Assembly (NCBI GenBank): GCA_030748435.1 | Contig: JASMLZ010000068.1 | Location: forward strand, 721-64,720 | Origin: Gammaproteobacteria bacterium | GTDB lineage: Bacteria; Pseudomonadota; Gammaproteobacteria; Pseudomonadales; Balneatricaceae | Length of the DNA stretch: 64,000 nucleotides | Direction of reading: 5' to 3' | Part shown: piece by piece, positions 26,144-64,000 of the stretch | Layout of the letters: each line of letters opens with the position of its first letter | How positions within the stretch are numbered: position 1 is the first letter of the stretch | Notes under the pieces: generated by a model | Told to the model about the DNA's origin: nothing | The model's input: the letters and a program-made list of their open reading frames with translations, nothing else | Database searches by the model: none | Translations under genes and position numbers: made by a program

Positions 26144-26152
26144 GAGAGCAAT

Positions 26153-26761: not shown

Positions 26762-26763
26762 AG

Positions 26764-27342: not shown

Positions 27343-27343
27343 T

Positions 27344-32084: not shown

Positions 32085-32094
32085 GAGACGGACA

Positions 32095-44933: not shown

Positions 44934-44955
44934 GGTTGCTCCTTGGGCTAACTAG

Positions 44956-46995
<2,040 letters not shown>

Positions 46996-48213: not shown

Positions 48214-48442
48214 AAACTGACTATTTAGCTATAGGACAAAAGTTAAGCTTATCATGATGTAGTCTTGTGTGCGTTATAGATAGCATGGTGGTTTACTTGC
48301 TCTTTATACCCATTGCTGGTGGCTCTGTGTGTCCCTTATTTTGCATAACAAAATGTTATTAAATTGGGTGGCTAAATGTTGTTTGACCCTTGCTTTGGTG
48401 GCTTATATGCTTGCTTCTTTATGACTCTTTATTGAGGTGATG

Positions 48443-49387
48443 ATGCAATTTGAAGGAATTTATGTGCCGGTGATCACGCCTTTTGATGCTGACTATGGCA
48501 TCAATGAGAAGGCTTACGGCGACATTATTGAAGGCACTATCGCCGCTGGTATGCAAGGTATTATTGTGGGTGGTACGACAGGTGAATATTATGCCATGAC
48601 CCGTGCCGAACGTATTCGTACCATGGAAATTGCCAAACAGGTGATTAATGGGCGAGTACCACTGATTGCCGGTGTTGGCGCCTTGCGTACGGAAGATGCC
48701 GAAGACTATGCCCGGGAAGCCCTGCGTATTGGTGCTGACTGTATGCTGTTGGGGGCCCCTTACTATGCCTGCCCAACCTCTCTGGAATTAATGCGGCATT
48801 GTTTATCGGTGGCAAGAGCCGCTGATCTGCCCATTATGCTCTATAACTTCCCGGATCGAACCAATGCCCCTATGGATGAAGAATTTCTGCAGCGGGTCAG
48901 TCAGCGGGCCAACTTCTGTGCCATTAAGGAAAGTAGTGGTGATATTAATCGTTTACACCTGTTAGCTCGCCACTACCCCCATATCCAATTGTGTGTGGGT
49001 ATGGATGATCAGGCCCTGGAGTTCTTTGCCTGGGGCGCGCGCAGTTGGGTGGCCGGGGCTTCCAACTTTCTGCCCAAAGAGCATTACGCACTGTATCATG
49101 CTTGTGTCGTTGAGCAAGACTTTGATAAGGGGCGGCGTATTATGACAGCCCTGCTACCTCTGATGAAAGCTCTGGAGCAGGGTGGTAAATTTGTGCAGAG
49201 TATCAAGTTTGGTTGTGAACTGCAGGGTATGTATGCCGGTACAGTGCGTAAACCGTTGCGCGGTCTGACCAAAGATATGCGGCGTGAGTTTGCTGTCGTG
49301 GTGGAAGTGGTGCAAACCACTGTGGCTGGCATCTTGGCAGAATCTGCTCAAGCAAACAAACAACATAAAAGCGTTAAAGCGAACTAG
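48443..49387 (+). CDS. Dihydrodipicolinate synthase/N-acetylneuraminate lyase (DapA) family class I aldolase
   Basis: It has GIYVPVITPF ... GIIVGGTTGEY ... YNFP ... IKESSGD (Schiff-base Lys region). Three in-frame start candidates lie at 48437, 48440 and 48443. Confidence 0.8.
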   Translation: MQFEGIYVPVITPFDADYGINEKAYGDIIEGTIAAGMQGIIVGGTTGEYYAMTRAERIRTMEIAKQVINGRVPLIAGVGALRTEDAEDYAREALRIGADCMLLGAPYYACPTSLELMRHCLSVARAADLPIMLYNFPDRTNAPMDEEFLQRVSQRANFCAIKESSGDINRLHLLARHYPHIQLCVGMDDQALEFFAWGARSWVAGASNFLPKEHYALYHACVVEQDFDKGRRIMTALLPLMKALEQGGKFVQSIKFGCELQGMYAGTVRKPLRGLTKDMRREFAVVVEVVQTTVAGILAESAQANKQHKSVKAN

Positions 49388-49399: not shown

Positions 49400-50914
49400 A
49401 TGTTAAGTAAACAGGACTATCAAGCCATTGCTGCCAATCTGGATTTACCGACTAACGCCTTTATTAATGGCCATTTTACTGCTGCCCAAAGTGGTGCCAC
49501 CTTTACTACACTCAATCCTGCTACTGGAGCAGAGTTGGCGCAGGTAGCTGCTTGCGACTCAGCCGATGTGGATATGGCTGTGCAGAGAGCGCGTGAAGCC
49601 TTCGAAAGTGGTATCTGGAGCAAGCTACAGCCTACCGAGCGCAAGCAGGTGATGATTCAGTTTGTTAAGTTGTTGCGGCGCCATCGTCATGAACTGGCCG
49701 TATTGGAAGCGCTGGACAGTGGCAAGCCTATTCGTGATTGTGAAGCTATTGATATTGAAGAGACCATTGCCTGCATCCAATGGCACGCTGAGGCCATTGA
49801 CAAGATTTATGATCAGGTAGCTCCCACCGGCGATGACGCAGTTGCTATGATTGTGCGTGAACCCTTAGGGGTTGTGGCGGCTGTGTTGCCGTGGAATTTT
49901 CCCATGTTAATGGCGGCCTGGAAACTGGGCCCGGCTCTGGCTGCAGGCAACAGTCTAATCCTTAAACCAGCCGAAGAAACCAGCATGACCTGCTTACGCA
50001 TGGCTGAATTGGCTCTGGAGGCAGGTATCCCGGCCGGTGTTCTGAATGTGCTGCCGGGTATGGGGGAAACCTGTGGCCAGGCCATAGGTCGCCATATGGA
50101 TATTGATGGTGTGTCCTTTACTGGTTCTACGGAAGTAGGGCGTTATTTTCTTAAGTATGCTGCCGAAAGCAACCTGAAGAAGGTAGTATTGGAATGTGGT
50201 GGCAAGAACCCATGTATTGTTTTGGATGATGCGGAACGTCTGGATGAGGTGGCTGAACAGGTTTTGACCGCAGTATTTTGGAATATGGGCGAAAACTGCT
50301 CATCTAATTCAAGGCTTATTGTTCATGCTGATATCAAGCCACAGTTACTGGCCAAATTACAGGATCAACTGGGTGACTGGCGTGTTGGTGACCCACTGGA
50401 CCCACAGTTTGCTCTGGGCGCCATGATTTCGGCAGCGCATTTTGACAAGGTTATGGGGTATATAGCTGCCGGCAAGCAGGAAGGTGCTAGCTTATTTGCC
50501 GGGGGCAAGGCAATTGACACAGGCAGTGGCTGGTTTATCGAGCCCACCATATTTGATAATGTGACGCCCGCCATGAGTATTGCTCAGGCTGAAATTTTTG
50601 GCCCCGTATTGTCTATCTTGACGGTTAACTCGGCTGCTGAAGCGGTTGCCTTAGCTAATGACACCTGCTATGGGTTGGCAGCGTCCATCTTTACCAGCAA
50701 TGTGCGGCGCGCTCATAATATGGCCAGAGCCATTAAAGCCGGTACAGTGACGGTTAATTGCTACGGCGAGGGCAATTTGGCGACGCCCTTCGGAGGCTAT
50801 AAGGAATCCGGCTTTGGCGGCCGTGATAACGGTATCCACGCCCATGATCAGTATACCGAAGTAAAGACCATATGGCTGGACTTAACCACTGAATCAGATG
50901 CGGAACTGGATTAA
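49400..50914 (+). CDS. NAD-dependent aldehyde dehydrogenase, PuuC-like subfamily
   Basis: 504 aa and colinear with E. coli PuuC as I recall it (SGKPIRD, WHAEAIDKIYDQVA, VPWNFPMLMAAWKLGPALAAGNSLILKPAE, ECGGKNP, GENCSS, EVKTIWLDL). Confidence 0.85.
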   Translation: MLSKQDYQAIAANLDLPTNAFINGHFTAAQSGATFTTLNPATGAELAQVAACDSADVDMAVQRAREAFESGIWSKLQPTERKQVMIQFVKLLRRHRHELAVLEALDSGKPIRDCEAIDIEETIACIQWHAEAIDKIYDQVAPTGDDAVAMIVREPLGVVAAVLPWNFPMLMAAWKLGPALAAGNSLILKPAEETSMTCLRMAELALEAGIPAGVLNVLPGMGETCGQAIGRHMDIDGVSFTGSTEVGRYFLKYAAESNLKKVVLECGGKNPCIVLDDAERLDEVAEQVLTAVFWNMGENCSSNSRLIVHADIKPQLLAKLQDQLGDWRVGDPLDPQFALGAMISAAHFDKVMGYIAAGKQEGASLFAGGKAIDTGSGWFIEPTIFDNVTPAMSIAQAEIFGPVLSILTVNSAAEAVALANDTCYGLAASIFTSNVRRAHNMARAIKAGTVTVNCYGEGNLATPFGGYKESGFGGRDNGIHAHDQYTEVKTIWLDLTTESDAELD

Positions 50915-50922: not shown

Positions 50923-52257
50923 ATGCAGAAGGTCAAAAAATTCCCTGATTACCCTAATGACAGCGGTTGGTATGCTAGCTTGCCGGCGCGGCAAGCTGGC
51001 CCGTCGCTAACAGCGGATATTAGTGCTGATGCGGTTATTTTGGGGGCTGGTTTTGCCGGTTTAAGTGCTGCTCACCGTTTGGCTGAACTAAAACCCGATT
51101 GGCAGATACTAGTGGTTGATGCTTTGCCGGTGGGTATGGCCAGCAGTGGTCGCAATTCGGGGTTTATGATTGACTTGCCCCATACCCTTGATTCCCAGTC
51201 CTATACCAGCTCCGCTGGCGGTGTCAATGACGCTGATCGACAGGTTATTGCGTTTAATCGCAGCGCCATTGATTATGGTCGTACACTGGTAGAACGTTAC
51301 CATATTGATTGTGACTGGAGTGAAACTGGCAAAATTCATGCTGCTGCTACGGCCCAGGGAGCAAAAAGTCATACCGACTTTATGCGTGGCCTAGACGCCC
51401 TGGGTGAAGCCTATACGCCCTTGAGTGGTGTGCAGATGCAGGCCACTACCGGCATTGATTACTATCACTCCGGGGTGCATACACCCGGTACAGTGGCCGT
51501 GCAACCAGCGGCATTGGTCCGTGGTTTGGCAGCGCATCTGCCAAGCAATGTCAGCCTTTATGAAAATACTCCTGTAACTGGTTATGAGTGGGCTAGTCCC
51601 CATCAATTAAACACGCCTAATGGCTGTATTCGTGCCCGGCAGGTATTACTTTGCAATAACGGCTTTGGTGCCATGTTTGGGCTCCACAAAAACAACCTTC
51701 TTCCCATTTTGCTATTTGCCAGCATGACCCGGGTCATGAGTTCGCAAGAGCAAGCCTTGTTGGGCGGTGAAAAACAGTGGGGGCTGGTTCCCTCGCACCC
51801 GGCGGGAGCGACCATTAAACGTACTGCAGACCAGCGTTTGGTGGTACGTACGGGGATCAAATCCAGTTATAATATGCGTTATGGTCCACAGGTCATAGGG
51901 GCTATGCAAGCCCTGCACCGATCTTCTTACCAACGGCGTTTTGGCGCTCAGCTACCTGCTCTGGAGTTTGAGTATAGTTGGGGTGGCTTATTATGTATGA
52001 GCCGTAATGAGGGAACGGTTTTTGGTACGGTTGGCAAGCGCCTGCATGCCGCCATTTGTCACAATGGTCTGGGCGTCGCTCGTGGTACTGCTGCCGGCAA
52101 ACTTTTGGCGGAACATGTGGCAGGCCATGACAGTGAGCTCTTGCGTCAGTATTTACAGTCTCCGCAGCCGGCATGGATGCCAGCCCACCCCATTTCTACT
52201 CTAGGGGTGATGGGTAATATTTGGCGTCATCAAACCCTTGCCGGTCGAGAAGCCTAA
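50923..52257 (+). CDS. FAD-dependent amine/amino-acid oxidoreductase (DAO family, PuuB/OrdL-like)
   Basis: 444 aa. It has the dinucleotide fold VILGAGFAGLSAAHRLAE and SGRNSGF, and its size and N-terminal extension are typical of the PuuB/OrdL group. Confidence 0.75.
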   Translation: MQKVKKFPDYPNDSGWYASLPARQAGPSLTADISADAVILGAGFAGLSAAHRLAELKPDWQILVVDALPVGMASSGRNSGFMIDLPHTLDSQSYTSSAGGVNDADRQVIAFNRSAIDYGRTLVERYHIDCDWSETGKIHAAATAQGAKSHTDFMRGLDALGEAYTPLSGVQMQATTGIDYYHSGVHTPGTVAVQPAALVRGLAAHLPSNVSLYENTPVTGYEWASPHQLNTPNGCIRARQVLLCNNGFGAMFGLHKNNLLPILLFASMTRVMSSQEQALLGGEKQWGLVPSHPAGATIKRTADQRLVVRTGIKSSYNMRYGPQVIGAMQALHRSSYQRRFGAQLPALEFEYSWGGLLCMSRNEGTVFGTVGKRLHAAICHNGLGVARGTAAGKLLAEHVAGHDSELLRQYLQSPQPAWMPAHPISTLGVMGNIWRHQTLAGREA

Positions 52258-53165
52258 AAACTATTTAACAACCATTGACTTAGAGCTTGCACATCCGGGT
52301 TATCTGCCCGGTTGGACTTGATGGCCAGATAATAACCTCGCCCCGTATCCCATTGTTTATCTGTTAAGGCGATCAGCTTGCCTTTGGCGACCAGATCACC
52401 AATAGAATGTTCAAAGCCCAGAGCGATACCTTCGCCTTCCAATACAGCCTGAATCAACATCAGGTAATTGTTAAAGGTCAAACCACTGGGTTTTAAATCC
52501 ACTGTGTCGATACCAAAGTGCTGTAACCAGGCTGGCCAGTCAATCGCATCCCAACCAATATTTTCCCACAACTGCTCGTCCATATGCAGTAAGCGATGGG
52601 CTAACAAATGCTCCGGATGCTTGGGTCTTGTATGTTTGTCAAGATAACTCGGGCTACATACAGGGTAGGCACGTTCAGAGAATAAATAATGGGTTTCATT
52701 GCCTTGTAATTGGCTATTTCCACAGGTTAGCGCCAAATCCACTTTTTCTGAGCGCTGTTCCTGAGCATTGTCGGTGGCAATAACATGCACTTTTAGATGG
52801 GGGTATTGTTGTTGGAAGGCACGAATACGTGGCATTAACCAAAACGAAGAAAAGGCATGGGTAGCGGCAATGGTGACCTGACCAAAAGTCAGTGTCCGGC
52901 GAATATCATCACACACACTGCCAATATGTCCTAGTCCCATAGTTACTGCTTGAAATAGGCGCTCACCCTCTTTACTAAGCTCCAGGTGGCGGCGCACACG
53001 CAAAAATAATTGACAGCCTAATTGGTCTTCCAGACGTTTTATTTGCCGGCTTACAGCAGCCTGAGATACACACAGCTCGTCGGCGGCTTGAGTAAAGCTG
53101 AGATGGCGGGCTGCGGCTTCGAAAGTAACCAGACCATTAATGCCCGGCAGTTTTTTTCGTAACAT
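52254..53165 (-). CDS. LysR-family transcriptional regulator (GcvA-like)
   Basis: 303 aa. LPGINGLVTFEAAARHLSFTQAADELCVSQAAVSRQIKRLE is the HTH. It is divergent from the second mttB-like operon. Confidence 0.85.
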   Translation of the reverse strand: MLRKKLPGINGLVTFEAAARHLSFTQAADELCVSQAAVSRQIKRLEDQLGCQLFLRVRRHLELSKEGERLFQAVTMGLGHIGSVCDDIRRTLTFGQVTIAATHAFSSFWLMPRIRAFQQQYPHLKVHVIATDNAQEQRSEKVDLALTCGNSQLQGNETHYLFSERAYPVCSPSYLDKHTRPKHPEHLLAHRLLHMDEQLWENIGWDAIDWPAWLQHFGIDTVDLKPSGLTFNNYLMLIQAVLEGEGIALGFEHSIGDLVAKGKLIALTDKQWDTGRGYYLAIKSNRADNPDVQALSQWLLNSF

Positions 53166-53227
53166 AACATTGTTCTATTAAAGTATACGCCGCCAGTTTA
53201 GTTGGTTGGGTTATGGCCTGTAAATAG

Positions 53228-53242
53228 ATAACTATATGTTAT
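53228..53242. promoter_or_regulatory. Candidate LysR operator (T-N11-A box, ATAAC-TATAT-GTTAT)
   Basis: Inverted repeat fitting T-N11-A in the divergent LysR/mttB-like intergenic region. Confidence 0.45.
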
Positions 53243-53331
53243 CCATATGTACAAAAATGTTGTTTGTGCTATGTCGGCAAGCAGCGTATTTTGGGGTTTG
53301 TGATAAATTAGCTGGCTAGTGGAAATAACTT

Positions 53332-54891
53332 ATGTCGCAAGCTTTTGCCGAAGCAACTAAATTCCGCCGCGGAGGCCGAGCCAATCGCCGTGCCTTGCGC
53401 ACTGACAATATCGAACAAATGCTGCCCCAGTTAAAGCGGGGCCTGCCTTATATGGAACCACTTAATCAAGCTCAAATTGACTTGATTGATGATGCTTCCA
53501 TGGCCATTCTGGAAGATGTCGGTGTGGTATTTCGAGATGATATTGCACTAAATGATTGGCGTCAGGCTGGTGCCAGAGTAGAAGGTGATTTGGTTAAATT
53601 CGACCGGGAAATGATTCGTGAACTAATCAGTAGCATACCAGCTGAATTTAATTACCATGCTCGTAATGTCGCCAATAATCTGCAATTTGGTGGCCCCCAC
53701 AGTATGTTTGTGCCCATGACCGGGGCGCCCTTTCTACGTGATCTGGAGGATGTGCGCCGCAACCCGACACTGGATGATCTGGCCATGTTCCATAAGTTGG
53801 CCCATATGAGCCCGGCTTTGCACTCCTCAGCTCACCATATTGTGGAACCTATGGATCACCCAGTGCCCTGGCGTCACCTACAAATTACCTATTCCTCAAT
53901 GAAGTACTCAGACAAGACCTTTATGGGTATGACTACGTCGGGTAAAAATGCCGAAGATGTAATGGCTATGTGTGACATTCTGTTTGGCAAAGACTTTGTT
54001 GATCAGCACGCAGTCACCACGGGTAATATCAATGGCAATTCACCTCTGGTGTGGGATGAAACCATGCTTGGGGCCATGCGTGCCTTTGTTAAACGCAAAC
54101 AGCCCGTACTATGTTCACCCTTTGTTTTAGGTGGGGCCAACACACCCGCCTCAACCGTACCGGCAGTGGTGCAATTAAATGCCGAGGCCTTGTCAGCACT
54201 AGCTTATACGCAGTTACTAAACCCCGGGGCAAGAGCCATTTACGGGCATTATCTGGCGACCGTTTCCATGCGTTCGGGAGCGCCTATGGCAGGCACGCCG
54301 GAAATCTGTCTGATGAACTATATGATTGGTCAGATGGCGCGTTTTTATGATGTGCCCTGGCGTACTTCCAATACTCTGGGCGGGGCAAAAACCTTTGATG
54401 CTCAAGCTGGTTACGAAAGTGGGGTAAACCTGATGGCAGTGATGGCTGCAGGAGCTAATTATATTTGGCATTCAGCAGGTTGGAATGAGGCAGGTATGCA
54501 CTGCTCGGTAGCAAAGTTTATGGTGGATGCGGAACAATGCGCTATGGCTTATCGCATGACTGAAGGCCCGCGTTGGGATGACTTTGATACGGCTTTGGCT
54601 GCCGTACGTGATGTGGGGCCGGGTGGCCACTATCTGGGACATCAGCACACGCAGGAGAACTTCGAAAGAGCCTTCTTTATGCCTAAATTACTAGATAATA
54701 TGAGTATAGAACAGTGGGTTGCTGAGGGTAGTATGGATATTACTGAGCGGGCCTTAAAGTTGGCCAAAACCAAATTGGCTGAGTATCAGGAACCCAAGCT
54801 GGATGTAGCAATAAATGATGAGCTACTGGATTATATTGCCCGTCGGGAAAGAGAAATTCCCGACGCTGGTGGTTTGAACGAAGAGTATTAA
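53332..54891 (+). CDS. MttB-superfamily methyltransferase, second paralog (non-pyrrolysine)
   Basis: 519 aa. The N-terminal RRGGRANRRALR motif and the overall colinearity match the 5823-7370 product. There is no in-frame TAG. Confidence 0.8.
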   Translation: MSQAFAEATKFRRGGRANRRALRTDNIEQMLPQLKRGLPYMEPLNQAQIDLIDDASMAILEDVGVVFRDDIALNDWRQAGARVEGDLVKFDREMIRELISSIPAEFNYHARNVANNLQFGGPHSMFVPMTGAPFLRDLEDVRRNPTLDDLAMFHKLAHMSPALHSSAHHIVEPMDHPVPWRHLQITYSSMKYSDKTFMGMTTSGKNAEDVMAMCDILFGKDFVDQHAVTTGNINGNSPLVWDETMLGAMRAFVKRKQPVLCSPFVLGGANTPASTVPAVVQLNAEALSALAYTQLLNPGARAIYGHYLATVSMRSGAPMAGTPEICLMNYMIGQMARFYDVPWRTSNTLGGAKTFDAQAGYESGVNLMAVMAAGANYIWHSAGWNEAGMHCSVAKFMVDAEQCAMAYRMTEGPRWDDFDTALAAVRDVGPGGHYLGHQHTQENFERAFFMPKLLDNMSIEQWVAEGSMDITERALKLAKTKLAEYQEPKLDVAINDELLDYIARREREIPDAGGLNEEY

Positions 54892-54952
54892 TGCTTACTG
54901 AGCAGATGCTTGCCCAATTAGTCTGTGGGTTGAATGTGAGTTGAGAGATAAT

Positions 54953-57004
54953 ATGACAGACCCTTTATTAACCCCCTTTACACTGGGTAAGGTGCATTTG
55001 CGCAACCGTTTAATGAGTACTGCTCATGCCCCGGGCTATATTGAAGATCGTATGCCCAAGCAGCGTTATCGTTTATATCATCAGGCTAAGGCTAAAGGTG
55101 GTTTGGCCCTGACTATGTTTGGTGGTTCCTGTACAGTATCGCCGGATTCGCCTGCGGCTTTTGCCCAGATAGATCTGAGCCATGATCGGGTTATACCCTG
55201 GATTAAGGAACTGGCTCACAGCGTGCATGATGAGGGTGCCGCCATTATGTGCCAGATAACGCATCTGGGCCGTCGCACAGCTTTTGATGTGGAGCACTGG
55301 TTGCCACCTGTAGCTCCCAGTGCCATACCAGAACGCCCCCATGGCAGTAACCCGGCGGTATTGCGTGCTGCCGATTTGACCCGTATCGCTGCCGATTATG
55401 CTCAGGCTGCATACCGCTGTGCCGAAGCCGGCCTGGATGGGATAGAGTTGATGGCCTATGCCCACTTGCTGGACCAATTTTGGACCCCGGCCTTTAACCA
55501 GCGCGCCGATGCTTATAGTGCCGATGAGCAGAACCGTTTGGCTTTTACCCTGCAGGTTATGGATGCCATCCGTGCCGCCGTGGGGCAGGACTTTTTGTTA
55601 GGCATTCGAATGACGGGCGACGATTTTTTAGCACAATCACAAGGCTTGCAAGGTCTCGATGAGGCTGCTTGTCTGCAGATTGCCCAGCAATTAGAGGCTA
55701 GTGAGCAACTGGACTTCTTTAACTTTGTTGGCGGTCATCTGACTACCGATATGGGTTTGGCTGACTGTATTCCTCCTATGGGCAATCCTTCTGCCCCCTT
55801 TTTATCTCTAGCCGCACGTATGAAACAGGCCCTCAAATTGCCAGTTATGCATGCCACCCGGGTGACTGATGTAGCCAGCGCTCGCTACGCTATAGAATCC
55901 GGTGCTGTGGACTTGATTGGTATGACCCGTGGGCATATGGCAGACCCCAATATTATTGCCAAGTTAAGCCTTGGTCAGGAGCACCGTATCCGTCCATGTG
56001 TGGGGGCGGGCTATTGCCTTGATCGTTTACATGCCAAGGGTGAGGCCTTGTGTATCCATAATGTGGCAACCGGGCGTGAAGCCAGTATTTCCCATCAGCT
56101 TAAGACGGCAAAAGAGTCCCGTGATGTGGTTGTCGTCGGTGCTGGCGTAGCGGGTTTGGAAGCTGCCCGTGTGGCTGCTGAAAGAGGGCATAAGGTGACG
56201 GTGCTGGAAGCCACTGCGCAGGTGGGAGGACAGGTTAATCTGGCGGCTATGGTGCCCAGACGCAGAGAAATGGCCAGTATTATTGGCTGGCTCAAGCAGG
56301 AATGTGATGCTTTGGGCGTCAGCTTTGTATATAACTGTCTGGCTGAGTCGGAAGACGTTTTACAATATAGCCCTGAGATGGTGGTTATCGCCACTGGTGG
56401 ACTACCCAGACCTTTATCTCTGCAGCAAGGTGAGCATCTGGTAACAGGGTTATGGGATATATTAAGTGGTTATGCCAAACCTGCGGCCAAGGTGTTGCTG
56501 TATGACAATAATGGTGGTCATCAGGCTATGAGTGCAGGCGGCTTTATGCTGACCAACGGCACCCAAGAACTGGAATTGGTAAGCCCTTATCGAACGGTAG
56601 GGCGTGATATTGGTGATGTTAATTTCCCTCATTATCTGCGCGACCTTTATGCTGCTGATGCCAGATTGACGCCAGATTGGGAGCTGGTGGCGGTGGCGTC
56701 TGAAGCGGGTCAGTTATGCGCTACCTTGTGGAATGAATACAGTGCTACCAGCCAAACCCGGTTGGTAGATCAGGTGGTAGTAGAAAACAGCACCGATGCT
56801 AATGATCAGCTATTTTATGCTCTGGTACCACAGAGTCGAAATAATGGAGACATAGATTTTATTGGTATTCAGCAGGATCAGCCACGTTTGCTTGACGTTA
56901 ATCCTCAGGGGCAGTTTTATTTATACCGTATTGGTGATGCCTGGGCCGGGCGTAATATTCATGCTGCCTTGTATGATGCCATCAGGCTGTTAAAAGATTA
57001 TTAG
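54953..57004 (+). CDS. OYE-type FMN plus FAD/NAD(P)-binding two-domain flavoprotein, N-methylproline demethylase (StcD)/amine dehydrogenase-like
   Basis: About 683 aa. It has the same architecture as FadH and trimethylamine dehydrogenase (LRNRLMSTAH, VVVGAGVAGLEAA), but the Cys cluster region reads CVGAGYC..x12..C rather than CxxCxxC. I chose the start at the ATG 54953 after gagaga; the ORF-track TTG start is at 54941. Confidence 0.75.
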   Translation: MTDPLLTPFTLGKVHLRNRLMSTAHAPGYIEDRMPKQRYRLYHQAKAKGGLALTMFGGSCTVSPDSPAAFAQIDLSHDRVIPWIKELAHSVHDEGAAIMCQITHLGRRTAFDVEHWLPPVAPSAIPERPHGSNPAVLRAADLTRIAADYAQAAYRCAEAGLDGIELMAYAHLLDQFWTPAFNQRADAYSADEQNRLAFTLQVMDAIRAAVGQDFLLGIRMTGDDFLAQSQGLQGLDEAACLQIAQQLEASEQLDFFNFVGGHLTTDMGLADCIPPMGNPSAPFLSLAARMKQALKLPVMHATRVTDVASARYAIESGAVDLIGMTRGHMADPNIIAKLSLGQEHRIRPCVGAGYCLDRLHAKGEALCIHNVATGREASISHQLKTAKESRDVVVVGAGVAGLEAARVAAERGHKVTVLEATAQVGGQVNLAAMVPRRREMASIIGWLKQECDALGVSFVYNCLAESEDVLQYSPEMVVIATGGLPRPLSLQQGEHLVTGLWDILSGYAKPAAKVLLYDNNGGHQAMSAGGFMLTNGTQELELVSPYRTVGRDIGDVNFPHYLRDLYAADARLTPDWELVAVASEAGQLCATLWNEYSATSQTRLVDQVVVENSTDANDQLFYALVPQSRNNGDIDFIGIQQDQPRLLDVNPQGQFYLYRIGDAWAGRNIHAALYDAIRLLKDY

Positions 57005-57117
57005 AGGGTTTCGCAGCATGGTTATTGGGTCCAATAAAGGCGTTGTTGTCTGGCCCCCGCACAAGATTCTGCGGCGGGTGTGGCTTTATATTAATGATAA
57101 AATTCAGGAGCAAAATC

Positions 57118-57885
57118 ATGCGCTTTGTTGACAAAAGGGTCATTATCACCGGTGCTGCTGGAGGTATCGGCCAGACACTGGTTGACTTGTTTGCTCGCGA
57201 AGGTGCGCAAATATTGGCTACGGATTATCAAGGTGACAAGTTGCAGGCCTTACTACCAAGTTGGCAGGCAAAGGGCTATAAGGTTGTTACACAAGCGGGT
57301 GATTTAGCTTATAAAACCGATTGTGAGGCCTTAGTTGAGGCTTGTGTTAAGCAGTTTGGTGGAGTAGATGTGTTGCTTAACAATGCTGGTATTATTCCGC
57401 GAGGTAATATTCTGGAGACCACCGATGAGATGTGGTTTGCTGCTATGAATGTCAACCTTAATGCAGTATTTTACCTGTGCCGGGCAGCTATCCCCTATAT
57501 GCAGCAGGCGGGTGCGGGTGCCATCGTTAATACCAGCTCCGTCTGGGGTACAGAACCAGGCCCGGGACATGTGGCCTATTGCACCAGTAAAGGGGCCTTG
57601 GCATGTTTGACTCGTAATCTGGCTGTTGATCATGCGCCAGATAATATTCGAGTCAATGCGGTATGCCCCAATGAGGTGAACACGCCCATGATCCGCACAG
57701 GCTTTGCGCGCCGGGGTTTGGATCCCGATGAAGGGGTGGCGCAGCTTAATCAAAGTGTGCCCTTGGGGCGCATTGCAGAAGCAGAAGATATTGCTGATGT
57801 GATTGCTTTTTTAGCATCGGATGCAGCAGGTTATGTGTGTGGTGCAGTGGTGCCAGTGACCGGAGCTAAACCAGTATATGGGTGA
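57118..57885 (+). CDS. Short-chain dehydrogenase/reductase (SDR)
   Basis: It has TGAAGGIGQ, NNAG and YCTSK. The start was trimmed to the ATG after CAGGAG. Confidence 0.85.
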   Translation: MRFVDKRVIITGAAGGIGQTLVDLFAREGAQILATDYQGDKLQALLPSWQAKGYKVVTQAGDLAYKTDCEALVEACVKQFGGVDVLLNNAGIIPRGNILETTDEMWFAAMNVNLNAVFYLCRAAIPYMQQAGAGAIVNTSSVWGTEPGPGHVAYCTSKGALACLTRNLAVDHAPDNIRVNAVCPNEVNTPMIRTGFARRGLDPDEGVAQLNQSVPLGRIAEAEDIADVIAFLASDAAGYVCGAVVPVTGAKPVYG

Positions 57886-58636
57886 AAAGACTATGCAAAA
57901 AGTTGTCTTAGTAACAGGCGGAGGTGCCGGTATAGGCTTAGGCATCAGCCAAGCCTTTCTGGCGGCTGGTTATCAGCTAGTGGTGGTGCAACGCTCGGCA
58001 TTGCCAGAGGTCTTGGCTACTAATCCACAAGTGGGCTATTTTGCTTTGGATTTAAGCCAGCAGGACTTTGCTGGCTTGGTTGAATATGTGACTAACCGCT
58101 ATGGACGCTTGGATGCGCTGGTCAATAATGCGGGCTTTATGCAGGAACAGCCTATGGGATATCTACAGAGGGACGACTGGGACCGCATGCTATCAGTCAA
58201 TGTCACCACTCCAGTATTTCTAACCCAAGCCCTGCAGCCGCTATTAATGGCCAGTAAAGGCGCTGTTGTTCATATTGGCTCCATTGAAGGCCTGGCCAGC
58301 AACCCTCAACACGTTGCCTATTGCGCTAGCAAAGGTGCAGTGCACAGTATAACTCAAGCCATGGCCGTGGATCTTGGGCAGTATGATATTCGTTGCAATG
58401 CCATTGCCCCGGGGTGGATAAGATCGACACTTAGTGATACCTATATTAATGCCCAGGATGATGTCGAGGGTGCTTGGCAGGGTTTGCATAAAATGCATCC
58501 GGCAGGGCGGGTTGGTGAGCCTCTGGATATTGGTCAGGCAGCCGTATTTTTAGCCAGTCCACAGGCAAGCTTTATCACCGGACAAATATTGGTTGTGGAT
58601 GGTGGCCGCACGGCCAAGCTCCCTTTACCTTTTTAG
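57878..58636 (+). CDS. Short-chain dehydrogenase/reductase (SDR)
   Basis: It has TGGGAGIG, NNAG and YCASK. The start overlaps the upstream stop codon (ATGGGTGA); the alternative ATG is at 57893. Confidence 0.85.
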   Translation: MGEKTMQKVVLVTGGGAGIGLGISQAFLAAGYQLVVVQRSALPEVLATNPQVGYFALDLSQQDFAGLVEYVTNRYGRLDALVNNAGFMQEQPMGYLQRDDWDRMLSVNVTTPVFLTQALQPLLMASKGAVVHIGSIEGLASNPQHVAYCASKGAVHSITQAMAVDLGQYDIRCNAIAPGWIRSTLSDTYINAQDDVEGAWQGLHKMHPAGRVGEPLDIGQAAVFLASPQASFITGQILVVDGGRTAKLPLPF

Positions 58637-58704: not shown

Positions 58705-59634
58705 TTGAAGCAAGCTGCGTATAAACCTTGGCTAGCCGCTGCACTGGATTTGGGTTCCAATAGTTTTCATGTGACTATTGTTGATACTCGTGTCCAGCCT
58801 TATCGCGTGTTATTTCGCTATGGTGAAAAAGTACAGCTGGGAGCTGGTTTGGATAGCCATAACCAATTATCTGCTGAGGCACTGGCAAGAGGCCTCAATG
58901 CCATTCGTGGTATGGCCGACCGCATGGCACAGGTGGTCCCGCAACAGCGCTATATTGTGGCCACAAATACTTTGCGCGTGGCCAGCAATCGGCAGGACTT
59001 TATCCGCTCGGCAGAACAAATCTTGCAGGCGCCAGTACAAGTTATTAGTGGCGAGCGAGAGGCCCAACTGATCTTTGCCGGTGTAGTAGATGAACTATCG
59101 AGCCTCACCTTAGGCAATAGGGTTAAATTGGTGATTGATATTGGCGGCGGTAGTACAGAAATTTCCTGTGGCAATGACACCCCACGCTTGCTTAATAGCT
59201 TCCCTATGGGTTGTGTTGCCTACAGTCGTGAATTTTTCCCGGATCGCTGCATCACCTTGGCCGCTATGCAAGCGGCGGTACAAGCGGCTCGCCAATGTGT
59301 AATAAACCATGTTGCGCAGTATCAAAGTTATGGTTGGCAGTTTGCTGTGGGATCATCTGGGACCATCAAAGCCCTGACAGCCCTAAGTGGACAAAAGGAT
59401 CAGGGATTGCCGTTACTGACGCAGTCGAGTATGGCCACCATTGAACAACGTATTATGCAGTTTGCCACCTTGGATGAAGTTAACTTGGCTAACTTGCGTC
59501 CTGACCGTGGGGAAGTACTTCCTGCCGGCTATGCTATTACCCTGGGTCTGATGCAGGCTTTTCAACTGGATCAGTTATATTTCTCCAGCAGTGCTTTGCG
59601 TGAGGGGGTTATTGCCAGCTATATAAAGACCTAG
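58705..59634 (+). CDS. Ppx/GppA-family phosphatase (N-terminal actin-like ATPase domains only)
   Basis: 309 aa with a TTG start in the ORF track. AALDLGSNSFHV and DIGGGSTE are the Ppx/GppA phosphate-binding motifs. Confidence 0.75.
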   Translation: MKQAAYKPWLAAALDLGSNSFHVTIVDTRVQPYRVLFRYGEKVQLGAGLDSHNQLSAEALARGLNAIRGMADRMAQVVPQQRYIVATNTLRVASNRQDFIRSAEQILQAPVQVISGEREAQLIFAGVVDELSSLTLGNRVKLVIDIGGGSTEISCGNDTPRLLNSFPMGCVAYSREFFPDRCITLAAMQAAVQAARQCVINHVAQYQSYGWQFAVGSSGTIKALTALSGQKDQGLPLLTQSSMATIEQRIMQFATLDEVNLANLRPDRGEVLPAGYAITLGLMQAFQLDQLYFSSSALREGVIASYIKT

Positions 59635-59713: not shown

Positions 59714-60448
59714 TTAAACTGCCAGGTATTCTTCGCGCAGAGCCTGATTATCCAGCACCTCTTGCGCGGTGCCAGTAAACACAATTTCACCAGTATCGAT
59801 GATAATGGCGTGGTCAGCCAGTTTTAGCGCTGCCACGGCATTTTGCTCGACGATTATAGTGGTAATACCCATCTTCTTAACTTCCTGCAACATGCGCTCA
59901 ATTTCCTGGACGATAACTGGTGCCAAGCCCTCATAAGGCTCATCCAGTAACAGCAATTTAACGTCACGGCATAGAGCGCGGGCAACAGAAAGCATTTGTT
60001 GTTCGCCCCCAGATAAAGATGATGCTTCCTGTTTGCGACGTTCTGCCAAACGCGGGAAGTGGCTGTAGACTCGCTCTTTATCCCAGCCTATTGGCTCGGC
60101 GATTTGGGCCAGAGTAAGGTTATCTTCCACGGTGACGCCAGGGATAATACGCCGATCTTCACAGACCAGTTGAATGCCATTGCGGGCAGCTTCATATGTT
60201 TCCATAGTGTGCATTGCCTGCCCATTTAACCAGATTTCTCCACTGGTTAACGCAGGCTGGTTAGCTCGGGCAATGGTACGCAAAGTAGAGGATTTGCCAG
60301 CACCGTTACGGCCTAAAAGAGCAACAATTTCTCCTTCTGGGATATCAAAAGATACACCTTGCACTACATAACTTTCACCATAGTAGGCGTTTAAGTCACG
60401 ACAGGAGAAGAAAGATTGCACTTGGTGATTGTTTGCTAATACGCTCAT
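59714..60448 (-). CDS. Branched-chain-amino-acid-type (HAAT) ABC transporter ATP-binding protein, LivF-like
   Basis: It has Walker A GRNGAGKSS, LSGGEQQM and LLLDEP. The start was trimmed to the ATG at 60448, which is preceded by AAGGAGA; the ORF-track extension overlaps the upstream gene. Confidence 0.85.
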   Translation of the reverse strand: MSVLANNHQVQSFFSCRDLNAYYGESYVVQGVSFDIPEGEIVALLGRNGAGKSSTLRTIARANQPALTSGEIWLNGQAMHTMETYEAARNGIQLVCEDRRIIPGVTVEDNLTLAQIAEPIGWDKERVYSHFPRLAERRKQEASSLSGGEQQMLSVARALCRDVKLLLLDEPYEGLAPVIVQEIERMLQEVKKMGITTIIVEQNAVAALKLADHAIIIDTGEIVFTGTAQEVLDNQALREEYLAV

Positions 60449-60458
60449 TATATTCTCC

Positions 60459-61211
60459 TTACACTTGCGCTTCGCCAAGGTAGGCTTCAATGACTTTTGG
60501 GTGACCTTTGATGTCATCTGGCGAACCTTCGGCAATAATTTGCCCTTGCGCCAGTACCGAAATTTTTTCTGACAAGGAAAATACCACATTCATATCGTGT
60601 TCTACGATAACCTTGGTTATACCGTCCTGCAGATTATTCAGCAGTTCAATAGTTTGCTCAGTTTCGTGACGCGCCATACCTGCTGTTGGCTCGTCCAACA
60701 ATAGCAGGCGTGGTTTGTGAGCCAAACAAATAGCCATTTCCAAGCGGCGTTTGTCACCTCGCGATAGACTGTCAGCACGCACATGCAGCTTATCCTTGAG
60801 GCCGAGTTCACAGATCTGCTCTTCAGCAAATTCAATCAATGGTCGTTGGTGGCTGCTACTTTCAAACATATTCATACGAAAAGAACCATCACGGGCAGCA
60901 AATACTGGGATGGTGACATTTTCTAAAACGGTCATTTCTGGAAATACAGCCGGTGTTTGAAAAACCTTGGCAATACCTAACTGGTTAATGTCGTGTGGCT
61001 TTACATTCAATAGCGGTTTGCCATCGAACATTACCGAACCATCGTTGGGTTCCAACATGCCAGTCAGGACGTTTAACAGCGTTGATTTACCTGCACCATT
61101 AGGGCCAATCAAAGCATGGGTGGTTCCTTCTTCAATCTTCAGGTTGACATTTTGTAGAGCTTTCAGGCCACCAAAGTTAAGAGAGACCTGATGAATATCT
61201 AAAATAGGCAT
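60459..61211 (-). CDS. HAAT ABC transporter ATP-binding protein, LivG-like
   Basis: 250 aa with GPNGAGKST, LSRGDKRRLE and LLLDEP. Confidence 0.85.
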   Translation of the reverse strand: MPILDIHQVSLNFGGLKALQNVNLKIEEGTTHALIGPNGAGKSTLLNVLTGMLEPNDGSVMFDGKPLLNVKPHDINQLGIAKVFQTPAVFPEMTVLENVTIPVFAARDGSFRMNMFESSSHQRPLIEFAEEQICELGLKDKLHVRADSLSRGDKRRLEMAICLAHKPRLLLLDEPTAGMARHETEQTIELLNNLQDGITKVIVEHDMNVVFSLSEKISVLAQGQIIAEGSPDDIKGHPKVIEAYLGEAQV

Positions 61212-61222
61212 GATGACTCTCC

Positions 61223-62185
61223 TTACTCTTGCTTAATACGTTTGTACAGGCGGGATAAAGCTTCCATAAAGCCACCTGGCATAAAGATTACAACGGCCAT
61301 AAAGATAAAGCCTAGTACCAGTAACCACTGTTCCCCCAGATCTACCGACAGAACATTTTCGAAGTAGAGCATAAATCCTGCTCCCAACATGGGGCCAACC
61401 AGTGTGCCAACACCACCAATCACACTCATAATGACGATTTCACCAGACTGATGCCAGCCTAGGAATTCATGGCCTACAAAGGGTTCATATACCACCATTA
61501 GAGCACCGGCCAGGCCAGCATACATAGCACTGATAACAAACGTCAGCAGCTTATATTTACGCGCATTAATACCCGTGTACTCCAGACGTTGCTGATTACA
61601 TTTGATAGCCCGCATCATCAAACCTACCGGAGATCGCTCAATACGCTTGGCAATATAAAACATGATAATGGCAACCAGGGTGACCAAGTAGAATACCGCA
61701 TCACCTTGCATTTTGATGCCTGCCAACATAGGTGTTGGCATACCAGTGAGGCCGTTTTCGCCACCTGTCCATTCCTGCAACATAGCCATGGCCATGGAGT
61801 GAAACATCTCCGCGAAGGCTAGGGTCAGGATAGAGAAGTAAATGCCGGTGCGCTTTAGGGTTAGTAAGCCAATGATTACAGCCACTAGGGTAGAAACCAA
61901 TACCGCAACCATGATGGCAGGAATGATTTGAGCAGAAAAATCTTTTAGCATCAGACCTGTAGTATAGGCTGCGATGCCAAAGAAAGCAGCGTGTCCAAAG
62001 GACAGGTAGCCCGTATAACCTAACAGCAAATCAAAGCCAACCACAAAGATACAAAAGATCATAATCTTGGTGTCTAGCCCAGAGTAACCACCAAGCAAGG
62101 GGAACCAAAAAGGCATGGTAAGTGCGATTAGAGCGAAGATCACGACAGCTTTATTGCGTTGTAAAAAACCTTGTTGTATGTTCAT
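61223..62185 (-). CDS. HAAT ABC transporter permease, LivM-like
   Basis: 320 aa polytopic protein with the motif GYTGYLSFGHAAFFGIAAY. Confidence 0.85.
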   Translation of the reverse strand: MNIQQGFLQRNKAVVIFALIALTMPFWFPLLGGYSGLDTKIMIFCIFVVGFDLLLGYTGYLSFGHAAFFGIAAYTTGLMLKDFSAQIIPAIMVAVLVSTLVAVIIGLLTLKRTGIYFSILTLAFAEMFHSMAMAMLQEWTGGENGLTGMPTPMLAGIKMQGDAVFYLVTLVAIIMFYIAKRIERSPVGLMMRAIKCNQQRLEYTGINARKYKLLTFVISAMYAGLAGALMVVYEPFVGHEFLGWHQSGEIVIMSVIGGVGTLVGPMLGAGFMLYFENVLSVDLGEQWLLVLGFIFMAVVIFMPGGFMEALSRLYKRIKQE

Positions 62186-63087
62186 TATTCGAATACTCCC
62201 TTAGCACCCAATAGACCCCGTGGACGAACCAGAAGAACAATAACGGTAATCAGGTAAATAATGATGGTGGAAAGGTTTATATCGTAAGCAGTAAAGCTTT
62301 GCGCCATACCAATAAGTATGCCAGCCAATACAGCACCACTTAGAGAACCCATGCCGCCGATCACAACCACTAAAAAGGAAGGTACCAGCAAGTGCATACC
62401 GACTTCGGGTGATACTTGGGTAACAGGGCCACCAAAGACGCCGGCAATACCAGCAATAAGAGAACCAAGACCAAACACAATCATAAAGCGGCGATTAATA
62501 TTCACCCCTAAAAATTGCAGCATTTCCGAATCCCGCATTCCAGCTCGGATGACCAGACCAAAAGTAGTCCAGTGCAGCAAGGCAAACACGGCAGACACAG
62601 TCACAATAGACACAACTACCAGAATCATGCGCCACTTGGGATAAACTACAAAGCCTTCCAGAAAAGGGAACCATTCATGCATCAGAATAATGCCGTTGCC
62701 CCAGCTGGGTATGGCAAAAGGAATATTGTTAGCACCAAAAACCCACTTCAGGAGTTCCTGTATGACGATGGCCAAACCAAAAGTGACCAGAATTTGATCA
62801 GTATGTGGCCGGTTGTAAAAAAATTGAATCAAACCACGTTCCATGGCCAACCCAAGTATAAACAGGATGGTTGGAACGAGAACCAGCGCCATACCAAAAC
62901 CCATAGCGTCATTAATAGATACGGCGAGATAAATCGCTACCAGGTACAGGGCACCGTGGGCGAAATTAACCACTCCCAAGGTGCCAAAAATAAGAGTCAG
63001 CCCAAGTGCGATAAGCACGTAGATCGATCCCATTTGTAGGCCGGTGAGCAGTTGCATAAAGAATGCATTGATCGACAGGTCAAACAT
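62185..63087 (-). CDS. HAAT ABC transporter permease, LivH-like
   Basis: 300 aa polytopic protein with the motif GVVNFAHGALY. Confidence 0.85.
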   Translation of the reverse strand: MFDLSINAFFMQLLTGLQMGSIYVLIALGLTLIFGTLGVVNFAHGALYLVAIYLAVSINDAMGFGMALVLVPTILFILGLAMERGLIQFFYNRPHTDQILVTFGLAIVIQELLKWVFGANNIPFAIPSWGNGIILMHEWFPFLEGFVVYPKWRMILVVVSIVTVSAVFALLHWTTFGLVIRAGMRDSEMLQFLGVNINRRFMIVFGLGSLIAGIAGVFGGPVTQVSPEVGMHLLVPSFLVVVIGGMGSLSGAVLAGILIGMAQSFTAYDINLSTIIIYLITVIVLLVRPRGLLGAKGVFE

Positions 63088-63204
63088 TGCTGATGCTCCA
63101 TTTGCTGTTATTGCAGAACAGAATTAACAATAATTCTAGTTATAAAAACACCGCAGGATAAAGGCATTATTTTGCATGTGTTTTTGTTAATAATTTATGT
63201 AAAA

Positions 63205-63260
63205 AAGTGGGCAGTCAATATACCCACTTTAATAACAGGCCAGCCCCATGGCTGGCCTGT
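63205..63260 (-). terminator. Two intercistronic hairpins between the binding-protein gene and the permease genes, the second followed by a T6 run on the minus strand
   Basis: The first is ACAGGCCAGCC-ccat-GGCTGGCCTGT (63235-63260). The second is AGTGGG...CCCACT (63205-63227), with an A6 run on the plus strand that reads as T6 on the minus strand. Confidence 0.55.
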
Positions 63261-63281
63261 CAATGATCATACAAGGGCTCA

Positions 63282-64000
63282 CTAAGCTGGCTTGTATGGA
63301 CCCAGCTCACCTGGGAAGATGCTTGGGTCGTAGTCTGCCGTGGCACGATCTACTTCCTGTAATACTTCCAGATAGTCAAAATCACTGGTACGAGCCGATG
63401 GGGATTTACCCTTCATCACCAGCATGCTCTTGATACACTGGTGGTCAACACCACGGTACAGGGTTGAACCGTTACCCGCGCCATCAAACTCAAAGTCTTC
63501 CAGAGCCTTGATAACTGCTGGTGGGTAGAAGGTGCCTGCCATTTCACAAGCATTGGCATATAGCAGAGTCTGTACATAACAGGTATGAGCAGCCTGTGAG
63601 GGTGGGAAGCCATACTCATCAGTAAAGGCTTTAACGAATACCTTGGAACCTTCATCCTGAAGCGCCCAGTTCCAACCGGAGGTGCCTAGTACACCATCGA
63701 TATTGGTGGATCCGGCTCCTTTAGCCATTAGGCGAGAGTATAGTGGTACCACGATCTCCAGATTTTTGCCGTTTTTCTGCATATCACGCATACCGAAGTT
63801 AACAGCATTGGTCAAAGAGTTCACCATATTTGCGCCATAGTGGTTTAATACCAGTACGTCAGCATCAGAGTTCAATACCTGAGCCAAATATTGTGAGAAG
63901 TCGGTAGTTTTCAGAGGCGTCATAATATTGCCCTCTGTGGCCCAACCTTCAGCCTCGGTAAACTGTTGCATGGATTCTTGCTGAGTATGACCCCAGGAAT
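63282..64000 (-). CDS. Periplasmic binding protein, type I (LivJ/K / amide-binding family); N-terminus lies outside the window
   Basis: I checked the codons between 63972 and 63998, and the frame stays open to the window edge upstream of the ORF-track Met. It heads the HAAT transporter operon. Confidence 0.7.
   Translation of the reverse strand, partial: SWGHTQQESMQQFTEAEGWATEGNIMTPLKTTDFSQYLAQVLNSDADVLVLNHYGANMVNSLTNAVNFGMRDMQKNGKNLEIVVPLYSRLMAKGAGSTNIDGVLGTSGWNWALQDEGSKVFVKAFTDEYGFPPSQAAHTCYVQTLLYANACEMAGTFYPPAVIKALEDFEFDGAGNGSTLYRGVDHQCIKSMLVMKGKSPSARTSDFDYLEVLQEVDRATADYDPSIFPGELGPYKPA

Follow-up and report, generated by a model that had tools for sequence, protein, structure and literature searches.

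A stretch of 64,000 nucleotides from a Gammaproteobacteria bacterium of the Balneatricaceae (assembly GCA_030748435.1, contig JASMLZ010000068.1, positions 721 to 64,720; hereafter the window) carries a LysR-type regulator gene facing four genes that code for an MttB-family methyltransferase (MttB2), a two-domain flavoprotein and two short-chain dehydrogenases/reductases (SDR1 and SDR2). Together with an upstream operon coding for a dihydrodipicolinate synthase (DHDPS)-family protein, an aldehyde dehydrogenase (ALDH) and a DAO-family oxidoreductase, these genes are read here, with somewhat better than even confidence, as a two-operon LysR regulon that would take hydroxyproline betaine, and probably proline betaine as well, down to 2-oxoglutarate with a cobalamin-dependent first demethylation. 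The broader description of a proline-ring betaine demethylation module is held more firmly than this full reading, and each individual step less firmly. The genes are compared below with those of the hydroxyproline/proline betaine (hpb) pathway, which was reportedly described by Zhao et al. in 2013 (Nature 502:698).

The neighbourhood of MttB2 was followed with a contig scan of one genome per species, which gave 80 loci with orthologues 73-84% identical to it, mostly from marine Rhodobacterales and Roseibium (Labrenzia) with some from Gammaproteobacteria. The nearest relatives of the window locus are found in Oceanospirillaceae metagenome-assembled genomes (MAGs) and Candidatus Njordibacter, and the window DNA itself is also present on a JGI marine metagenome contig. 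The 63 loci that reach 14 kb or more were used to count neighbours within 10 kb of the orthologue. Two or more of the DAO, ALDH and DHDPS genes are present in 54/63 loci, a GntR regulator in 51, orthologues of both SDR genes in 32, the epimerase gene hpbD in 24, ProVWX transporter genes in 10 and an HpbA-family gene in seven. In one locus a proline-racemase-family gene lies between the MttB and oxidase genes, and a Rieske oxygenase gene occurs in one locus.

A protein search of plasmid records also returned genes 74-77% identical to MttB2 in Leisingera, Phaeobacter and Cereibacter (Rhodobacter) sphaeroides 2.4.1. On plasmid pB of the latter, MttB is followed by an enolase-superfamily gene and two SDR genes, after which come a convergent DAO-ALDH-DHDPS-GntR set and then ProVWX, with the MttB gene ending 55 bp ahead of the enolase-superfamily gene. 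In R. sphaeroides hpbJ/I/H are RSP_3998-4000 and hpbD is RSP_4007, a validated epimerase of hydroxyproline betaine and racemase of proline betaine, with 9-11 fold induction by the latter (Kumar et al. 2014, PMC3950512). By a gene count made here from hpbJ/I/H and hpbD, from which the numbering RSP_4001-4008 derives, the enolase-superfamily gene is RSP_4007 (hpbD), the MttB gene is RSP_4008 and the SDR genes are RSP_4006 and RSP_4005. The MttB2 clade is therefore represented inside the hpb island, beside the validated hpbD and hpbHIJ. Neither the MttB gene nor the SDR genes are mentioned in PMC3950512.

MttB2 (53332-54891, +) is encoded by an uninterrupted 519-codon open reading frame (ORF) with no in-frame amber (pyrrolysine) codon and matches PF06253 with 695 bits over profile positions 1-500 of 500. 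Its matches in the PDB include 4yyc, a structure without assigned function (464 bits, 45% identity), and 2qne, the Desulfitobacterium glycine betaine enzyme MtgB (342 bits, 40% identity). In MtgB's crystal structure, Y97 and F356 make up the cation-pi pair with which glycine betaine is bound and R312 and H348 serve as carboxylate ligands, while in MttB-superfamily enzymes that do not use glycine betaine R312 is kept and H348 mostly kept but the aromatic pair is not (PMC13080624). MttB2 was aligned against the MtgB and 4yyc sequences and 83 members of its clade were examined at these positions. The clade pattern at Y97/R312/H348/F356 is T/R/H/G and is invariant (83/83 members), so that MttB2 retains the Arg/His carboxylate ligands with Thr and Gly replacing the cation-pi pair. 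With the Arg/His residues kept and the aromatic pair gone, the sequence speaks for a substrate that is an acidic quaternary amine but not glycine betaine. MttB2 is predicted to be a non-pyrrolysine member of the MttB superfamily acting as a (hydroxy)proline betaine:corrinoid methyltransferase. Its clade is distinct, very conserved, widespread and unnamed; the 73-84% identical orthologues span marine Alpha- and Gammaproteobacteria, more than 590 stretches in the one-genome-per-species data match it, and public databases label it with the generic family name only.

The flavoprotein gene (ATG 54953-57004, +) codes for a protein of 683 aa with an N-terminal FMN domain of the old yellow enzyme type (Oxidored_FMN, residues 9-345) and a C-terminal FAD/NAD(P) Rossmann domain (Pyr_redox_2 from residue 395). 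The protein is 47-49% identical over its full length to Paracoccus proteins annotated 'hpbA: N-methyl-L-proline N-demethylase' in RefSeq (plasmid records), and 47% identical to matches on Sinorhizobium meliloti replicons, which have a generic annotation only. The flavoprotein, the annotated Paracoccus HpbA and six other family members have in common the motif RPCVGxxY-C[LI]DR...ALC[IL]HN with three Cys, which was derived in the present alignment and is not a published criterion. The best PDB sequence match is the E. coli 2,4-dienoyl-CoA reductase (DCR) 1ps9 with 183 bits, confined to residues 5-516, followed by trimethylamine dehydrogenase with 136 bits. However, the flavoprotein, with its three Cys, lacks the four-Cys 4Fe-4S motif of FadH and is 25% identical to a DCR-type paralogue in the window (44956-46986), in which the motif CIGCNQAC...C (CxxCxxxC...C) is present. 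The corresponding segment, RPCVGAGYCLDRLHAKGEALCIHN (about 55985-56056), has three Cys family-wide against the four 4Fe-4S ligands of trimethylamine dehydrogenase and DCR. These features place the flavoprotein in the HpbA/StcD N-methylproline demethylase family and not among the 2,4-dienoyl-CoA reductases, and it is predicted to be an N-methyl-(hydroxy)proline demethylase. The amine-demethylase type of FMN/FAD architecture proposed in an earlier reading of this DNA (the original prediction) is thus borne out by the domains, the identity to HpbA and the three-Cys motif, while the firm affiliation with dienoyl-CoA reductases which that reading had seen as its own undoing is not what was found.

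The combination of an MttB-type gene with an HpbA-family gene, also put forward in the original prediction, recurs in independent lineages, with the flavoprotein gene directly downstream in Oceanospirillaceae, Nioella and Defluviimonas, just upstream of the MttB2 orthologue in Shimia and a few kb away in one Rhodobacteraceae MAG. Of the four nearest species-level relatives, only two have the fixed order MttB-flavoprotein-SDR-SDR expected at the same time. Loci L006 and L007 have the divergent LysR gene followed by MttB2, flavoprotein, SDR, SDR and a Ppx gene. Locus L008 has MttB2 and the flavoprotein, an ammonium transporter gene (4503-5762, -) and Ppx with no SDR genes, and locus L047 has MttB2, an ammonium transporter gene (11785-13044, -) and Ppx with neither flavoprotein nor SDR genes. 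From these losses, the flavoprotein and the SDR pair are accessories that can be separated from one another, while the flanks on either side are conserved. In both L008 and L047 the ammonium transporter gene fills the slot between the MttB2 operon and Ppx. The Ppx/GppA gene of the window (58705-59634) was considered as an operon member and dropped, since it stays put in relatives without the flavoprotein and SDR genes; it is a conserved flanking gene outside the module.

The GcvA-like LysR regulator (52254-53165, -; PF00126 HTH_1 and PF03466 LysR_substrate) is separated from MttB2 by a 166-bp intergenic region, in which the predicted ATAAC-N5-GTTAT box, ATAACTATATGTTAT, is confirmed at 53228-53242. 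A second box, ATAACAAAATGTTAT (48345-48359), lies ahead of the DHDPS-ALDH-DAO operon, 78 nt upstream of the DHDPS-family gene. These are the only two copies of ATAAC-N5-GTTAT in the 64 kb, against 0.07 expected from shuffles, and both fit the dyad-symmetric LysR T-N11-A type, with the ATAACTATATGTTAT copy situated in the divergent intergenic region. Each box is followed by the same 12-mer, AAATGTTGTTTG, found 14 nt past the box of the upstream operon (48374-48385, +) and 12 nt past that of LysR/MttB2 (53255-53266, +), which is possibly an activation half-site or a -35 region. L006 has the 12-mer as well, some 1.1 kb upstream of MttB2 in the LysR gene region. The box at the upstream-operon promoter is kept in L006 and L007 and that at the LysR/MttB2 position in L007, L008 and L047, while the LysR protein is 74-77% identical to the LysR in the same position in the Oceanospirillaceae relatives. 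The LysR protein is the probable regulator of both flanking operons and we infer a single LysR regulon comprising the two. Since boxes stand ahead of MttB2 and of the trio operon and nowhere else, the module extends beyond what was first reported: the regulator and four genes are present as originally described, but the DHDPS-ALDH-DAO operon upstream, behind the same box, also belongs to it.

This upstream trio consists of the DHDPS-family protein (48437-49387, +; PF00701), predicted to be an HpbF-like pyrroline-4-hydroxy-2-carboxylate deaminase, the ALDH (49400-50914, +; PF00171), predicted to be an HpbG-like 2-oxoglutarate semialdehyde dehydrogenase, and the DAO-family FAD oxidoreductase (50923-52257, +; PF01266), predicted to be an HpbE-like hydroxyproline oxidase/dehydrogenase. 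The trio lies directly upstream and the end of the DAO gene overlaps the convergent LysR gene by 4 nt. The DHDPS-family protein falls below the dapA cut-off and is 53-60% identical to the DHDPS genes beside MttB2 orthologues, that of R. sphaeroides pB included; the ALDH is 58-65% identical to its counterparts beside MttB2 orthologues, and for the DAO protein a full-length comparison with the gene at the corresponding position on pB gives 36% identity. PDB sequence searches gave no relative at E <= 1e-15 for the DAO protein and generic DapA matches only for the DHDPS-like protein. D-amino acid oxidase (DAAO), DHDPS and ALDH enzymes make up the established route from cis-4-hydroxy-D-proline to 2-oxoglutarate (PMC4113996). 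The trio matches this DAAO/DHDPS/ALDH set of the hpb island, being syntenic with the R. sphaeroides trio, and stands behind the same LysR box as MttB2.

SDR1 (57118-57885, +) and SDR2 (57878-58636, +), both matching PF00106/PF13561, complete the MttB2 operon. The coordinates first given for the LysR gene, MttB2, the flavoprotein and the two SDR genes proved exact or within a few bases. The listed ORF of SDR1 begins with TTG at 57025, but the real start is likely to be the ATG at 57118, which has AGGAG ahead of it. With the start placed there, the junctions are 61 nt for MttB2/flavoprotein and 113 nt for flavoprotein/SDR1, with an 8-nt overlap for SDR1/SDR2. No terminator-like sites are present in the two intergenic gaps and the folding of the gap RNA is no better than that of shuffles (z -0.4 and -0.5), which makes co-transcription of the predicted four-gene operon plausible. 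In the promoter and terminator scan as a whole, sites were no more numerous than in shuffled sequence. No Rfam match was found inside the module and no module gene scored above an NCBIfam cut-off.

Both SDRs carry the TGxxxGxG cofactor motif and the Ser-Tyr-Lys catalytic residues of classical SDRs. SDR1 and its R. sphaeroides counterpart have an Asp after beta-strand 2 (NAD signature), while SDR2 has Gln-Arg and no Asp in this position (NADP signature), as in 40/40 orthologues. On R. sphaeroides pB the first SDR is the reciprocal best match of SDR1 (59% identity) and the second that of SDR2 (43% identity), with the same order and overlapping junction in both genomes. The best PDB match of SDR1 is 3uxy (255 bits), an SDR structure without assigned function, and its many homologues on plasmids (46-50% identical) lie in unrelated contexts and are uninformative on function. 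Tandem NAD- and NADP-type SDRs beside a C2 epimerase suggest the inversion of a secondary alcohol through a ketone, and the pair is guessed, at well below even odds, to carry out C4 epimerisation of hydroxyproline betaine or of a product of its demethylation. A role of the SDRs in the ring opening of a 4-oxo-betaine by elimination was also considered and dropped for want of support.

From the gene content, families, clade neighbourhood and operator motif observed above, we infer every substrate and reaction of the following pathway. MttB2 would demethylate the betaine once, to N-methyl-(hydroxy)proline, with the Co(I) corrinoid of a cobalamin-binding protein whose gene lies elsewhere as the methyl acceptor, and a separate methyl-corrinoid:tetrahydrofolate methyltransferase would pass the methyl group on, like the MtgC/MtgD proteins of Ruegeria and MtqC/MtqA of Eubacterium. 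The HpbA-family flavoprotein would then oxidatively strip the second methyl group from N-methyl-(hydroxy)proline with the release of formaldehyde. The resulting hydroxyproline would be converted to pyrroline-4-hydroxy-2-carboxylate by the DAO-family oxidase, to 2-oxoglutarate semialdehyde by the DHDPS-family deaminase and to 2-oxoglutarate by the ALDH. The SDR pair may act on the ring hydroxyl, the favoured conjecture being that it oxidises this to the 4-oxo compound and reduces it again with C4 inverted, which would complement the C2 epimerase HpbD that accompanies the pair in other genomes. It is more doubtful whether the MttB2 clade is specific for hydroxyproline betaine, which is not known as a substrate of the superfamily, and the SDR pair a new redox C4 epimerase for hydroxyproline betaine or N-methyl-hydroxyproline which, with HpbD, would funnel all four stereoisomers into one pathway. 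Both hydroxyproline betaine and proline betaine have been found in marine plankton (PMC11965087).

A number of observations weigh against this pathway. The 64-kb window contains no gene for a corrinoid protein or a methyl-corrinoid:tetrahydrofolate (pterin-binding) methyltransferase, no HpbD or proline-racemase-type epimerase, no betaine-type transporter (ProW/ProX homologue, HpbHIJ) and no electron transfer flavoprotein (ETF) genes, the latter following hpbA in P. pantotrophus. The lack of a C2 epimerase in the window is a difficulty for the entry of L-configured hydroxyproline into a D-specific oxidase. Identity to the alphaproteobacterial counterparts is only 36-40% for the DAO gene, and the DHDPS gene reaches only 30-37% with its best Sinorhizobium replicon matches; with such low identities the function of the trio rests on family membership and gene neighbourhood, and the stereospecificity of the DAO could differ from that of the alphaproteobacterial enzymes. 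The HpbA proteins encoded near MttB2 in Shimia and the Rhodobacteraceae MAG are 67-70% identical to Paracoccus HpbA, whereas the window flavoprotein and the Nioella and Defluviimonas copies directly downstream of MttB2 are only 47-51% identical to it. At 47-48% identity to P. pantotrophus HpbA, against the 67-70% of the clear orthologues, the window flavoprotein may be a paralogue with another amine substrate. The role proposed for the SDRs is a guess from cofactor motifs. In addition, R. sphaeroides and Motiliproteus also carry Rieske demethylases, for which reason MttB2 may be redundant or conditional; in the window itself no homologue of the Rieske demethylase HpbBC was found.

As regards the corrinoid partners, a scan with E. 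coli MetH domains detected corrinoid or pterin modules in only 2/80 loci, these being L083 with MetH-like B12-binding and pterin-binding genes (2243-4697, -) 5-8 kb from the MttB2 orthologue and L060 with a pterin-binding gene (10511-11194, -) about 9 kb from it. In Eubacterium limosum the paralogues MtpB, MtcB and MtyB have separate regulators and share MtqC and MtqA, which are encoded elsewhere (PMC8604678), while in Ruegeria MtgC and MtgD are encoded apart from MtgB and are shared with methionine synthesis (PMC12478193). Since the partners are often unlinked in these characterised systems, their absence from the window is compatible with their being encoded elsewhere in the genome.

Other substrates were weighed against hydroxyproline betaine. 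Proline betaine (stachydrine) could be the only betaine used, as by MtpB and HpbA, with the trio and the SDRs forming a separate hydroxyproline pathway that shares the island. HpbD and HpbA do act on proline betaine, which also induces hpbD and hpbHIJ (PMC3950512), MtpB is a proline betaine enzyme (PMC8604678) and the flavoprotein family is annotated as N-methyl-L-proline demethylase. This is nevertheless considered unlikely, as the hydroxyproline trio is linked to the MttB2 clade in 54/63 loci, the same LysR box lies ahead of both window operons, no PutA is linked and the two SDRs require a hydroxyl or keto group; moreover, HpbD accepts both betaines and the substrates are not exclusive. A second alternative makes MttB2 a glycine betaine MtgB and the flavoprotein a DgcA-like dimethylglycine demethylase, which would feed the sarcosine oxidase of the window. 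DgcA has the same two-domain architecture as the window flavoprotein. The SoxBAG genes and two genes resembling dimethylglycine dehydrogenase (DMGDH) in the window would also suit such a route, and MttB-family proteins increase on glycine betaine in Ruegeria (PMC12478193). However, the replacement of Y97/F356 by Thr/Gly in 83/83 clade members makes this improbable, MtgB itself scarcely uses proline betaine, which indicates that the shape of the pocket matters, no DgcB-like or ETF gene is nearby, and the clade is tied to hydroxyproline genes and HpbD, not to dimethylglycine/sarcosine genes.

The hydroxyl or keto group implied by the SDRs might instead sit on a hydroxylated quaternary amine of a different kind, for example carnitine or a pipecolate betaine bearing a hydroxyl group, with the SDRs as its dehydrogenases. 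MtcB is an MttB member that uses carnitine, and the DAO protein shows a weak similarity to L-pipecolate oxidase (110 bits, where the cut-off is 600). The chance of this being correct is put as slim, since having validated HpbD and HpbHIJ as neighbours speaks for proline-ring betaines and a DHDPS-type deaminase has no part in carnitine or pipecolate routes; the other genes to be expected in a carnitine catabolic cluster are not among the annotated MttB2 neighbours in the window and two fully annotated related loci. A reading in which the four genes stand together by chance, with no pathway in common, and the flavoprotein is an enoate reductase resembling 2,4-dienoyl-CoA reductase is scarcely credible. 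Although 1ps9 is the best PDB match of the flavoprotein (183 bits) and several databases name its relatives 'dienoyl-CoA reductase-like', this match is limited to residues 5-516, identity is 25% with the DCR-type paralogue of the window as against 47-48% with HpbA, whose three-Cys motif the protein has, and the gene set recurs across classes. Among the substrates named in the original prediction, hydroxyproline betaine is strongly favoured by the gene neighbourhood (54/63 loci and HpbD), while a carnitine-like compound has no support.

The proposed degradation of hydroxyproline betaine follows the pathway logic of the published hpb pathway and its first enzyme is of the MtpB/MtgB type, for which aerobic MttB enzymes were published in 2025 (PMC12478193). 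The hpb pathway of Pelagibaca bermudensis, Paracoccus denitrificans and R. sphaeroides comprises the same two N-demethylations followed by DAAO, DHDPS and ALDH steps to 2-oxoglutarate (PMC3950512), with an HpbA-family flavoprotein at the second step as in the window. Its first demethylase, however, is the Rieske enzyme HpbBC, which the MttB-type methyltransferase of the window is proposed to replace, and it has HpbD, ProVWX, a Rieske gene and ETF, all four of which the window lacks. The regulators differ also, the window LysR being only 33% identical to the LysR beside the Rieske genes (HpbR position) in a Paracoccus hpb cluster, and the pathway as published has no counterpart of the SDR genes. 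The S. meliloti stc system, as cited in PMC3950512, shares the StcD/HpbA-family second step and has a Rieske oxygenase at the first.

As is predicted for MttB2, MtpB of the E. limosum MtpB-MtqC-MtqA system, reportedly the work of Picking et al. in 2019, is a non-pyrrolysine MttB member for a proline-ring betaine with its own regulator and partners encoded elsewhere, but E. limosum is a strict anaerobe in which the methyl group enters acetogenesis and N-methylproline is the end product (PMC8604678). In contrast, MttB2 is found in aerobic marine bacteria and would be coupled to complete oxidation of the ring; the two are likened here by their described properties. The Ruegeria pomeroyi MtgB-MtgC-MtgD system likewise has an MttB-family enzyme in aerobic marine Proteobacteria, with separate partners and oxidative demethylases following (PMC12478193). 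This system was assigned to glycine betaine without separation of the paralogues ('the top hit was taken'; PMC12478193), whereas in MttB2 the aromatic pair for glycine betaine is missing and the neighbourhood is linked to hydroxyproline. The original prediction had called the union of an MttB-type enzyme with a flavoprotein demethylase a hybrid of anaerobic and aerobic routes; the pairing is real, but it is less surprising now that an aerobic MttB enzyme followed by oxidative demethylation has been published for glycine betaine (PMC12478193). In the literature searched there was no assignment of the MttB2 clade to the hpb island, no cobalamin-type methyltransferase replacing or duplicating the Rieske step and no conserved SDR pair of the hpb island.

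The hydrophobic amino acid (HAAT)-type ABC importer genes next to the module (59714-64000, -), originally offered as a plausible uptake system, are present but are not linked to MttB2 in its closest relatives. As a conserved partner the importer was rejected, with only distant HAAT permeases in 2/80 loci; the transporter linked to MttB2 orthologues elsewhere is of the ProVWX/HpbHIJ type.

A second MttB gene in the window, MttB1 (5823-7370, -), codes for a protein that is only 25-28% identical to MttB2 and MtgB, the value for MttB2 being 25%. It has Gly/Gly/Glu/Leu at the positions of Y97/R312/H348/F356, keeping 0/4 of the MtgB betaine-binding residues, and its substrate is probably not a carboxylate betaine. 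Its neighbours are two DAO-FAO_M-GCV_T fusion genes resembling dimethylglycine/sarcosine dehydrogenases (852-5805, -) and a LysR gene of its own (7641-8531, +). Rfam PYLIS_3, the mttB pyrrolysine insertion sequence, matches within MttB1 (6233-6332, -) at 42 bits, where the gathering score is 38; the ORF is free of internal stops and the match is probably coding-sequence similarity and not a functional element. In three Roseovarius loci (L062, L067 and L069, about 7900-9900) the gene directly upstream of the MttB2 orthologue codes for a second, distant MttB paralogue (26-27% identity), which gives these genomes tandem MttB genes within the hpb island.

Elsewhere in the window, a cobalamin riboswitch (25087-25259, +; 63 bits) precedes five plus-strand ORFs (25169-28742), three of which match DUF4198, CbiM and CbiQ; this run looks like a cobalt-uptake operon, which fits a cobalamin-dependent metabolism. 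The regions 14511-19019, 23536-25047 and 28831-35967 code for a NAD-linked formate dehydrogenase (NuoF-like and molybdopterin subunits), FdhD, MobA, a MobB-MoeA fusion and SoxB/SoxA/SoxG. Formate dehydrogenase, sarcosine oxidase and the riboswitch fit a methyl-group/one-carbon-oxidising, cobalamin-using organism. A tRNA-Ile (anticodon tat) called by ARAGORN at 35745-35840 (+) lies inside the soxG ORF and is probably a false positive. The DCR-type flavoprotein gene adjoins genes for an enoyl-CoA hydratase and an SDR (42875-46986, -), and together these look like a genuine dienoyl-CoA reductase-type module unrelated to that of MttB2.

In marine bacteria the genes of the MttB family are numerous and strongly expressed, and their paralogues have so far not been split by substrate. 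One very conserved MttB clade can now be assigned by its gene neighbourhood to proline-ring betaines, and the two conserved SDR genes of the hpb island are brought to attention. If the assignment is correct, an oxygen-independent, methyl-conserving first step would be added to a pathway known only with a Rieske oxygenase, and the use of this osmolyte would be linked to cobalamin supply. On the more doubtful reading of the clade as specific for hydroxyproline betaine, part of the 'mtgB' counts in ocean surveys would represent proline-ring betaines and not glycine betaine.

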